Shown here: positions 14,941 to 47,959 of the stretch, piece after piece
How positions within the stretch are numbered: the stretch's first letter is position 1
Layout of the letters: each line of letters opens with the position of its first letter
Assembly: GCA_951406725.2 (NCBI GenBank)
Contig: OX597823.1
Coordinates: forward strand, 93,682,001 to 93,746,000
Length of the DNA stretch: 64,000 nucleotides
Direction of reading: 5' to 3'
Source of the DNA: Octopus vulgaris
Taxonomy: Eukaryota
Translations under genes and position numbers: made by a program
Notes under the pieces: model-generated
The model's database searches: none
Seen by the model: only the letters and a program-made list of their open reading frames with translations
Told to the model about the DNA's origin: nothing

Positions 14941-15410
14941 TAATAAAATATTAGGGAATAAGTCCAAACTTACAGGGAAAAATCAGATTTAGGATTAAAT
15001 CCAATTTTATAGTATAAATATATTATATTAAATTATATTAAATTAGAGATAAAACCACTATTAGGCAAATCAAACAGTGAAAAACATAAGCCAATGCATA
15101 AAATTAATTTATTTATATTATTTTAAATATATATCAAAAGTATTAAAAGTTTAAAAGATAAAGAAACACTCTTTTTAAAGAAACACTCGTTATCACTATG
15201 GACTCCGTGTGGGCAGTCATCCAAAAGTTTTTGTTCGTCATGATGCTGACATAAGTTTCTTGTCTTTCCTGATGAGAAGGCGGCATAATGCACCCTTTAT
15301 TCCTTCGGAATTAGGAATATGCAGTCTTCGAAACATATGTCGAGAATAAAGGAATTTTGTTAAATCGTCGTTCAACTCCAATCTTTCATTTATTTATAGT
15401 AAAAAAAAAC
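14938..15410 (+). mobile_element. PLE pLTR-like insertion within (TA)n
   Basis: (TA)n on both sides; 15280-15400 is homologous to 46511-46640; contains a hammerhead. Confidence 0.7.
15258..15352 (+). ncRNA. type I hammerhead ribozyme, extended stem II, palindromic stem III
   Basis: TTTC-CTGATGA-GAAGGCGGCATA...TATGCAGTCTTC-GAAA-CATATG-TC-GAGA. Confidence 0.8.
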
Positions 15411-29929: not shown

Positions 29930-30405
29930 GAAAGCCAAAATTGCAAGAGGTCACAGAATTAACAGAAGGTATTAATATATATGTATTAGTACCCTCAGTC
30001 ACTTTTGAGACCTCTATAAATGTTGCCTTTAGGTTCTAATTGCTAATAAGTCGCCTCTTTAATTTGTTGTTTACATATTTACTGTTTTGGAAGTCAGCAC
30101 GCGTTTTCAACTGTTTATCTTATAAGACAAACAGAGATAGTTGAGTTTATAAGCCTAGGAATTAAGAGCCGCTGATGAGGATTAAGATGGTCTACATCCA
30201 AATCCGAAATCGCGTTCAGTCTATGCACTCTGGGACCTAACCTCCCTTTGTCAGGGATTTAAAAACAATGTGTTTATGGCTTTGGGTTAGTTTAAATATT
30301 TTCTTTAGCAAAAACCGGTGCGTCACAGTACACTCCCTCTCTTTTGTAACCGCCATGAATTTTGAGTTTAGGTTCTAATTGCTAATAAGCCACAGTCTTT
30401 AAGTT
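29930..30405 (+). mobile_element. PLE pLTR-like unit: 5' hairpin, ~340-bp period, partly eroded hammerhead
   Basis: Imperfect fold-back 29931-30030; TTTAGGTTCTAATTGCTAATAAG at 30028 and 30368; CTGATGA-GGAT...ATCC-GAAA-TCGCG-TT at 30172-30216. Confidence 0.65.
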
Positions 30406-33583: not shown

Positions 33584-33728
33584 GCGGCTGTGTCTTAAGC
33601 AGCACGCTTCCCAACCACATGATTCTGGGTTCAGTCCCACGTGCCATGCAAGTGTCTTCTACTATAGCCTTGGGCTGACCAAAGCGTTGGGAGCGGATTT
33701 GAATCACGGAAACCAAAAGAAGCCCGTT
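33584..33728 (+). mobile_element. SINE family A 5' part
   Basis: GCTTCCCAACCACATGATTCTGGGTTCAGTCCCAC...AAGAAGCCCGT. Confidence 0.7.
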
Positions 33729-39420: not shown

Positions 39421-39444
<24 letters not shown>

Positions 39445-39673
39445 CATAATTAATCAATATAGGGTGGCAAAAAATTTCGTAGAATTTATTTGCCACCAGC
39501 GGCCTAGTGGGAAAAAATTAAATAGTCATAGACCATTTATAAGTTCAACATCACAATCAAGGAATGGCCATAATAGGCCATTCACCCACTAGAAATAACA
39601 GCCAAAGCTTCAACCGCAAAATAACATTAATTCCGCAAACCAGTAGAAAATTAAAAAAACATTTACCCTGTAA

Positions 39674-39778
39674 TTTCTTATACGATGCACCGTTTCATCT
39701 ATTGTTTAATGGTAAACTAACCTGATTAAATTAAATCAAGCCAATCTTCCATAGGCCGATAGATTCGTCAGTAAGAAA
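39674..39778 (-). ncRNA. type I hammerhead ribozyme (inverted array copy)
   Basis: Reverse complement of 40127-40231. Confidence 0.85.
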
Positions 39779-40126
39779 CAGCCAGATCCGAGCAGATATT
39801 ATCACGAGGCACCTCTATCCCTGCCTCGGCAATATCTGACCTAAAATTTTCAAATCATCGCACTCGCGCCAAATTTATCGGCAGCAAATATAAGCCGCCG
39901 ATTCCATTACGGAATTAGCCGCTGGTGGCAAATAAATTCTACGAAATTTTTTGCCACCCTATATTGATTAATTATGAATTTTCTGGTTAAATCCGTAATG
40001 GAATCGGCGGCTTATATTTGCTGCCGATAAATTTGGCGCGAGTGCGATGATTTGAAAATTTTAGGTCAGATATTGCCGAGGCAGGGATAGAGGTGCCTCG
40101 TGATAATATCTGCTCGGATCTGGCTG

Positions 40127-40231
40127 TTTCTTACTGACGAATCTATCGGCCTATGGAAGATTGGCTTGATTTAATTTAATCAGGTTAGTTTACCATTAAA
40201 CAATAGATGAAACGGTGCATCGTATAAGAAA
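40127..40231 (+). ncRNA. type I hammerhead ribozyme with branched stem II
   Basis: TTTCTTA-CTGACGA-ATCTAT...ATAGAT-GAAA-CGGTGCATCG-TA-TAAGAAA; predicted cleavage after 40224. Confidence 0.9.
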
Positions 40232-40611
40232 TTACAGGGTAAATGTTTTTTTTAATTTTCTACTGGTTTGCGGAATTAATGTTATTTTGCGGTTGAAGCT
40301 TTGGCTGTTATTTCTAGTGGGTGAATGGCCTATTATGGCCATTCCTTGATTGTGATGTTGAACTTATAAATGGTCTATGACTATTTAATTTTTTCCCACT
40401 AGGCCGCTGGTGGCAAATAAATTCTACGAAATTTTTTGCCACCCTATATTGATTAATTATGAATTTTCTGGTTAATTCCGTAATGGAATCGGCGGCTTAT
40501 ATTTGCTGCCGATAAATTTGGCGCGAGTGCGATGATTTGAAAATTTTAGGTCAGATATTGCCGAGACAGGGATAGAGGTGCCTCGTGATAATATCTGCTC
40601 GGATCTGGCTG

Positions 40612-40716
40612 TTTCTTACTGACGAATCTATCGGCCTATGGAAGATTGGCTTGATTTAATTTAATCAGGTTAGTTTACCATTAAACAATAGATGAAACGG
40701 TGCATCGTATAAGAAA
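40612..40716 (+). ncRNA. type I hammerhead ribozyme (array copy 2)
   Basis: Same sequence as 40127-40231. Confidence 0.9.
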
Positions 40717-41095
40717 TTACAGGGTAAATGTTTTTTTAATTTTCTACTGGTTTGCGGAATTAATGTTATTTTGCGGTTGAAGCTTTGGCTGTTATTTCTA
40801 GTGGGTGAATGGCCTATTATGGCCATTCCTTGATTGTGATGTTGAACTTATAAATGGTCTATGACTATTTAATTTTTTCCCACTAGGCCGCTGGTGGCAA
40901 ATAAATTCTACGAAATTTTTTGCCACCCTATATTGATTAATTATGAATTTTCTGGTTAATTCCGTAATGGAATCGGCGGCTTATATTTGCTGCCGATAAA
41001 TTTGGCGCGAGTGCGATGATTTGAAAATTTTAGGTCAGATATTGCCGAGGCAGGGATAGAGGTGCCTCGTGATAATATCTGCTCGGATCTGGCTG

Positions 41096-41200
41096 TTTCT
41101 TACTGACGAATCTATCGGCCTATGGAAGATTGGCTTGATTTAATTTAATCAGGTTAGTTTACCATTAAACAATAGATGAAACGGTGCATCGTATAAGAAA
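41096..41200 (+). ncRNA. type I hammerhead ribozyme (array copy 3)
   Basis: Same sequence as 40127-40231. Confidence 0.9.
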
Positions 41201-41322
41201 TTACAGGGTAAATGTTTTTTTAATTTTCTAATGGTTTGCGGAATTAATGTTATTTTGCGGTTGAAGCTTTGGCTGTTATTTCTAGTGGGTGAATGGCCTA
41301 TTATGGCCATTCCTTGATTGTG

Positions 41323-41403
<81 letters not shown>

Positions 41404-47914: not shown

Positions 47915-47959
47915 CACACGCTGATGATAGGTAAACACCTTGAAACTCAGGTCCGTGTG
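47915..47959 (+). ncRNA. minimal type I hammerhead ribozyme
   Basis: CACACG-CTGATGA-T AGGT AAAC ACCT T-GAAA-CTCAGG-TC-CGTGTG. Confidence 0.8.

Follow-up and report, generated by a model that had tools for sequence, protein, structure and literature searches.

The window, a stretch of 64,000 nucleotides of Octopus vulgaris DNA (contig OX597823.1), contains a mobile-element insertion at 39442..41324 that occupies both strands: an inverted arm (39442-39920, minus strand) lies back to back with three tandem units of 484-485 bp (39918-41324, plus strand), as delimited by repeat and ORF analysis of the window. The insertion sits in (TA)n, which is present on both flanks. The unit has a GC content of 37% and contains no ORF of 100 aa in the window sequence. 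A hammerhead motif was found at 40127-40231 (plus strand), with a second copy at 40612..40716 (plus), a third at 41096..41200 (plus), and a fourth within the inverted arm at 39674..39778 (minus). The two outer ends each consist of a hairpin and a fixed end followed by (TA)n: E1 (41286..41324, plus) lies 131 nt past the predicted cut site, and E2 (39442..39503, minus) approximately 235 nt past it. At 40262, 40746, 41230, and the equivalent position of the inverted arm, all four copies carry A where most other copies carry C. This A weakens the hairpin just downstream of stem I, and its occurrence in all four window copies suggests that both arms came from one template.

A search of the genome (2.8 Gb, 227 contigs) yielded 43 matches to the unit on many contigs, and the 40 full-length ones were 98-100% identical; 117 distinct insertions were mapped. 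The copies are thus dispersed and recently mobile. The ORF-less tandem arrays, with one type I hammerhead per unit, reached at most seven units (L080), and representatives of five subfamilies were 73-97% identical to one another. Contigs matching the unit occurred in sequencing runs of four organisms (presence only; no run is on record as RNA). Judged by these sequence features, the 484-bp element is a protein-free, Penelope-type tandem repeat with the hallmarks of a non-LTR retrozyme.

Other repeats were seen in the window. Two copies of a CTGATGA...GAAAC motif with a short spacer lie 352 nt apart, at 47921 and 48273, within a 262-nt direct repeat, which is possibly another hammerhead-bearing repeat. 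CTGATGA...GAAA motifs occur at 15269 (plus) and 46458 (minus), as copies of one repeat, and at 30172 (plus), there with a GGAT/ATCC stem. A dispersed repeat segment of 58 nt occurs in four diverged copies, at 33663, 43504, 44942, and 47332, and is also found beside many of the insertions.

Hammerhead core and stems

The elements of a type I hammerhead, CUGANGA, GAAA, and NUH, are found in circular order, with all three stems (I, II, III) present and stem I open. Stem I is formed by TTTCTTA (40127-40133) and TAAGAAA (40225-40231), and the catalytic core CUGACGA (CTGACGA in the DNA) occupies 40134..40140. The segment 40209..40224 comprises the GAAA half of the core (40209-40212, within GAAAC at 40209-40213), a stem III that is near-palindromic and has UGCA as its loop, and the triplet GUA (40222-40224). 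All of these lie on the plus strand, and cleavage is predicted after 40224, on GUA. The triplets of 113 distinct variants were GUA in 70, GUC in 39, AUC in two, AUA in one, and UUA in one; an NUH triplet was present in 113/113, but the search pattern itself demanded it. Stem I had at least five pairs in 107 of the 113, and its strands varied in a compensatory manner (TTTCTTA/TAAGAAA, TACTTTA/TAAAGTA, TACCTTA/TAAGGTA, and TCTTTTA/TAAAAGA). Stem III consists of 3 bp plus an A-U pair and is nearly unstable alone (−0.2 kcal/mol), whereas two copies paired with each other reach −17.5 kcal/mol, so that cleavage as a dimer is possible.

A tight pattern of core plus stem III gave 720 genome matches versus none for the reversed control. 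A second pattern, designed for a diverged subfamily, gave 179 matches versus one in its control, partly overlapping the first set. The G10.1-C11.1 pair of typical hammerheads (purine-pyrimidine, usually G-C) is missing from the window subfamily, where the core-side position is A-U, A-A, or A-C; the pair that follows is U-A in the window copy and G-C in the diverged subfamily. RNAalifold on the whole alignment did not recover stems I and III. Rfam hammerhead models gave no match to the motif, either at the gathering score or at E values up to 10. They also missed the short-stem hammerhead of an autonomous element (L112), which makes this a weak test, and the long stem is therefore not shown to be the cause of the miss. 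In its sequence, the motif is a real type I hammerhead with an intact core, CTGACGA plus GAAAC, and an unusually long stem II, as the initial annotation had proposed when it described a hammerhead of PLE type.

Fold of the stem II insert

ATCTAT (40141-40146) and ATAGAT (40203-40208) enclose exactly 56 nt (40147-40202), as had been claimed. Folding and variant alignment on the plus strand divide the arm into an A at the core-side position plus the 5′ strand of base helix IIa, TCTAT (40141..40146); the 5′ strand of an internal loop, CGGCCU (40147..40152), also the predicted pseudoknot strand; helix IIb (40153..40196), in which 40153-40171 pair with 40178-40196 under a UAAUUU cap; the A-rich 3′ strand of the internal loop, UAAACA (40197..40202); and the 3′ strand of IIa, ATAGA, plus a variable base at 40208 (40203..40208). 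The segment 40141-40208 folded at −22.8 kcal/mol (z −5.0), and 0/200 shuffles folded as well. In the window copy, 18 of the 19 IIb positions are paired, five of them as G-U, which function on the plus strand only; the minus strand folded worse (z −2.3 versus −4.1).

This layout, a base helix of 4-6 bp, an internal loop, and a 19-position helix, was common to 76 distinct inserts of the family, and all 76 folded with a single hairpin loop. IIa had no invariant position (0/11) among the five subfamily representatives, and its pairing was still kept: the strands are swapped wholesale between subfamilies, TCTA/TAGA in one and GTGT/ACAC in another. This replacement bears out the proposed pairing of ATCTAT with ATAGAT except at its first A-U pair, which was A-U in 30, A-A in 27, and A-C in 19 of the 76 inserts. 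Since that pair is not kept, the base helix proper is TCTAT/ATAGA. For IIb, we used 31 variants picked from 51, truncated and near-duplicate ones being left out. Its positions were paired in 96.1% of cells, versus 10-57% in slid controls. One pair changed on both sides (G-C in 18, A-U in 13) and nine changed on one side. These counts are of related sequences and for that reason are not probabilities; the covariation of IIb is modest, as related sequences can beat a shuffle even when they share no structure. The apical 11 nt of the hairpin were almost invariant among the 31 variants. Among the five representatives, 33 of the 44 IIb positions were invariant, compared with 64% across the whole unit, and 6/6 positions of its loop. 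IIb and its loop are thus conserved somewhat above the unit average, which leaves room for a sequence-specific role.

The fold differs from the one first proposed, in which three hairpins formed a multibranched junction on stem II. One long hairpin has a calculated energy of −21.9 kcal/mol, against −9.7 kcal/mol at best for the three-hairpin fold. Pair probability was 0.0 for both the GCC..GGC and GTTTA/TAAAC hairpins; they were paired in 66% and 83% of cells, respectively, among the 31 variants, and covariation did not exceed that of shuffles for either. The pairing of CTTGATT with AATCAGG is real, but it forms the tip of the long hairpin and not a separate one.

Predicted internal-loop pseudoknot

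Directly upstream of stem I lies GGCUG (40122-40126, plus strand), which is complementary to the internal-loop bases CGGCC on the 5′ side (40147-40151) and is their predicted partner in a pseudoknot. Four pseudoknot pairs were kept in 30/31 variants of the smaller set and in 94 of the 100 scorable variants of the larger set of 113; the 13 unscored ones include truncations, offsets, and several in which GG was lost. The register was set by anchoring on GG and CC, which was our choice; an anchored script was used because the MAFFT alignment left GG out of register. At the third pair, the close subfamilies have C-G where the diverged one has U-A. This is the only two-sided change, and it represents a single evolutionary event. 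The fourth pair varies among U-G, U-A, and C-G, with U-G to C-G changes in both groups. The distance between the pseudoknot and the core, otherwise 11-12 nt, is 9-11 nt where IIa is shorter.

In 8/8 representatives, the site ranked between first and eleventh among approximately 390 positions, and equal or better pairing partners exist elsewhere in the unit; it is thus a good site and not a unique one. A partner in the AGG downstream of stem I was set aside, as by eye this AGG is part of a covarying hairpin there. Pseudoknots between stems I and II have been predicted in ~40% of hammerheads and shown to matter for rate, as described in PMC3088659. From the conserved complementarity, we consider it probable that a pseudoknot of 4-5 bp forms between the internal loop and the bases upstream of stem I. 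The suggestion that the insertion provides tertiary contacts would then hold for the basal internal loop, but not for extra hairpins.

Long stem II arms across the genome

A long stem II is common in this genome, with more than 4,000 pattern matches in several unrelated families. For a different type of stem III, inserts of 47-77 nt gave 3347 matches (control, three) and inserts of 8-38 nt gave 2146 (control, five); both are pattern totals, with the first 100 of each among the matches listed. Another unrelated family with a long stem II had 803 first-look candidates, of which 40 were scored. A single hairpin resulted for 39 of the 43 long inserts folded, which comprised 8 of the window family and 35 of other families; the median z was −2.9. 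By a crude count, only 26/43 had at least four contiguous stem I pairs, and many are old copies.

The arm varies in length among related elements. One group with homologous flanks had inserts of 16, 19, 21, 30, 36-38, 50, 58, and 68-70 nt, and another related pair, also with homologous flanks, had inserts of 25 and 59-60 nt; AT-rich sequence possibly helped the flank matches on the downstream side, and to a lesser degree those on the upstream side. Between families, the long arms have no sequence in common. The arm has thus become both longer and shorter in lineages every one of which has spread, in favor of a tolerated extension. It is likely that the distal hairpin is tolerated and not required, its dispensability being argued from other families; among the variants collected from the window family, none with a short stem II turned up. 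Several unrelated short repeat families (L215-L244, L245-L274, and L386-L403) also carry hammerheads, with the common palindromic stem III ACGATCGT, stem II inserts of 16-70 nt, and thousands of copies.

The idea that descriptors with short spacers would miss this motif agrees with the 7-17 nt spacer in the core search of Craig et al. (PMC8557442), but the Rfam miss is not necessarily due to spacer length. A further proposal, an RT-binding or regulatory role for the insertion, is unsupported: the two fixed ends are found beside other hairpins, 131 and 235 nt past the cut site, and related elements differ freely in the length of their inserts.

Insertion geometry and candidate partners

Across the 117 distinct insertions, 179/203 arms ended at one of two sites, approximately 131-145 and 225-240 nt past the cut. 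Simple two-armed insertions combined one E1 with one E2 in 53/60 cases and had the same end twice in none. Flanks were TA-rich in 201/234. Arms ran through the cut site in 161/179, and 47 ran through two or more. The 5′ ends were not enriched at the cut (3/203, versus 2.9 expected), and a small 5′-end peak near 177-182 was an artefact of where the query unit starts. Both E1 and E2 adjoin hairpins other than stem II and lie away from it. The insertions thus have the anatomy of PLEs: a tandem plus an inverted, 5′-truncated arm, two fixed ends (tail), and a microsatellite target. Two RT start sites are known for one PLE (PMC11167929), and by analogy with this anole element, the two-end geometry fits two internal start sites acting on an uncut multimer or circle.

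Intact (TA)n-targeting PLEs are present in the genome as two Hydra families and one family that we take, from its motifs, to be Neptune-like. This last family (L295-L325) is young and (TA)n-flanked, with a 781-aa RT-endonuclease frame, an upstream ORF, and ends 32-40 nt apart; our pattern found no hammerhead in its repeat. The first Hydra family (P0001) encodes 727 aa with RT and a C-terminal endonuclease in an intact ORF (L064:1019-3202; G000:C1:64218818-64220998). Its RWK, DKT, and CxCx5C motifs are as described in PMC8557442, and its ends lie 76 nt apart. Copies at 95-100% identity number at least 61, the hammerhead has a short stem, Pfam gave no match, and the family's insertion geometry is that of the ORF-less unit. 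The second has a 2.59-kb tandem unit, ends 67 nt apart, and a hammerhead (L214:3750-3810) with the core CCGAAGA and a 31-nt stem II containing an internal loop.

The partner search covered a subset of the genome's PLE copies: the two intact Hydra families, the Neptune-like family, and 20 of 22 decayed Hydra-motif loci. BLAST found no similarity to the unit in the three families (H1, H2, and Neptune-like), no homology was found in the 20 decayed loci, which were the ones extended, and by eye the 3′ end of the published Naiad_Ovul showed no similarity either. Long-stem hammerheads beside PLE ORFs at L174, L203, and L291 look like separate insertions in shared (TA)n tracts. A PLE-type ORF at L289:713-3345 has RT and GIY-YIG matches below Pfam cut-offs, and a hammerhead-like motif with a 27-nt stem II (GGGG/CCCC, 19-nt loop) lies near a decayed Hydra ORF at L178:5537 (plus). 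In the length of its tail (104 and 86 nt) and in having a mismatched base next to the core, the unit resembles Hydra more, and on balance we favor a Hydra PLE as the partner.

Discussion

Taking the core, the anatomy of the repeat, its fixed ends, and the conserved pairs as they stand in the DNA, we infer how the RNA folds, docks, is cut, and is copied, and which part of it is dispensable. The 56 nt would be the stem II arm of the predicted type I hammerhead, with a short base helix, a 6 × 6 internal loop, and a hairpin of 19 positions. Through its 5′ strand, the loop would pair over 4-5 bp with GGCU just upstream of stem I, and this pseudoknot would bring stem I and stem II together, the role of loop 2 in ordinary hammerheads. 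Facing away from the core, the distal hairpin would have to stay paired and would not be needed for the chemistry. A PLE reverse transcriptase that targets (TA)n, with the Hydra clade as its most plausible source, would copy the RNA in trans, beginning at two fixed sites of an uncut multimer or circle. As a whole, this combination of an unbranched arm, pseudoknot docking, a tolerated hairpin, and copying in trans is the explanation we judge best and consider more likely right than not.

The same hairpin could also form while the pseudoknot does not, its loop docking non-canonically or not at all, and cleavage would then be weak, dimer-dependent, or protein-helped as in other PLE hammerheads. 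The energy of stem III, far lower between two copies than alone, points this way, as do reports of low PLE hammerhead activity (PMC4209133), of one that needed its protein (PMC11167929), and of 8/9 frog retrozyme dimers left uncut (bioRxiv 10.64898/2026.07.22.740005); by eye, most of the other long-stem families also have no such internal loop. On the other hand, dimer dependence is compatible with a pseudoknot, GG and CC are both kept, the changes being two-sided once and one-sided several times, and the geometry agrees, so that we regard this alternative as conceivable and lean against it. The long hairpin could instead be a functional module, a binding site for a protein, either that of the PLE or one of the host's proteins for double-stranded RNA, which would gate cleavage or aid packaging. 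This would explain the lengthening of stem II in unrelated families. Several such families do have paired arms of 54-70 nt, most of the folded long inserts form a single hairpin, one stem III type has more long arms than short, hardly any variation is seen in the apical 11 nt, and an autonomous Hydra element also has a lengthened arm. Yet the long arms of different families share no sequence, relatives with 16-38 nt inserts have spread too, the fixed ends lie far from stem II, and in the one PLE tested, hammerhead mutants had no effect on insertion (PMC11167929). Editing of the stem might have left an A-to-G bias, and none was seen: among 134 copies in four identity groups, site changes per base were similar for A-to-G and for T-to-C (0.041/0.056, 0.124/0.090, 0.065/0.065, and 0.211/0.215). 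A module of this kind therefore seems unlikely.

Three small hairpins on a multibranched junction are very improbable. The short complementarities are present in the window copy, and TTTA/TAAA persists in most variants, but two of the hairpins (GCC..GGC and CTTGATT/AATCAGG) overlap at base C40165, the fold is 12 kcal/mol worse, and the outer pairs are broken in 13-20 of the 31 variants. A bolder version of the module idea holds that long-armed hammerheads are a distinct, uncounted class dominating the PLE-derived repeats of this lineage, the arm having been lengthened independently in many families as a protein-bound switch that suppresses cleavage while copying proceeds, and here locked to stem I by the pseudoknot. 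We consider this doubtful.

Returning to the tolerated arm docked by a pseudoknot, neither the kind of element nor the chemistry is new, and the architecture is widespread and not singular. As censuses limited by spacer length would miss apparently thousands of copies in this genome, the count of PLE-linked ribozymes may be too low. [quoted passage not shown] The role of PLE hammerheads is still open, and the arm series bears on it.

Comparison with known systems

In the literature examined, mostly open and with supplements that may show variants, we found no animal PLE or retrozyme hammerhead described with a hairpin of 50-70 nt as its stem II, and the accessible parts of PMC6765202 and PMC10085705 contain nothing on such arms. 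Published animal type I hammerheads are described with a helix II of 4-8 bp (PMC4209133; PMC13725137). Precedents for a long loop 2 appear in PMC8557442, where PLE-X1_sMoe (35 nt) and PLE-X1_sTam (29 nt), which are plant PLE-like, are marked as deviating, and eight Naiads are flagged with core halves 35-50 nt apart.

Animal non-LTR retrozymes (PMC7229834; bioRxiv 10.64898/2026.07.22.740005) are likewise described as ORF-less tandem repeats with one type I hammerhead per unit, low GC, a short palindromic stem III, and a proposed dependence on PLEs. The 484-bp unit lies above the 170-400 nt given by Cervera and de la Peña (2020; PMC7229834) and inside the 51-972 bp of Li, Clavereau and Pollet (2026; bioRxiv 10.64898/2026.07.22.740005). 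The element differs from them in its 64-68 nt stem II arm, where animal retrozymes have a 4-bp helix and a small loop; in its predicted pseudoknot, where they have loop-loop contacts; and in its back-to-back, two-armed (TA)n insertions.

Hydra-clade PLE hammerheads, as described by Craig et al. (2021; PMC8557442), share the type I layout, the palindromic stem III, the (TA)n target, the tandem plus inverted structure with a tail, and one additional base per side, often mismatched, between the core and stem II. In those listed, stem II is 3-7 bp with loops of 3-10 nt, compared with the 56 nt found here; the unit lacks an ORF, and its tail is ~86-104 nt, compared with 30-40 nt. [quoted passage not shown] (2011; PMC3088659) predicted in hammerheads of all three types has a predicted counterpart here, with four pairs kept in 94 of 100 scorable variants (13 further ones unscored) and one two-sided change. 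Here the stem II partner would be one strand of the internal loop beneath a long hairpin. Poseidon of the green anole (Frangieh et al. 2024; PMC11167929) is, unlike the ORF-less unit, an autonomous element with a short hammerhead overlapping the start of its ORF. As described for Poseidon, two internal RT start sites set the genomic ends, the targets are AT-rich, and no reads or ends fall at the hammerhead cut, which resembles the insertion geometry reported here.
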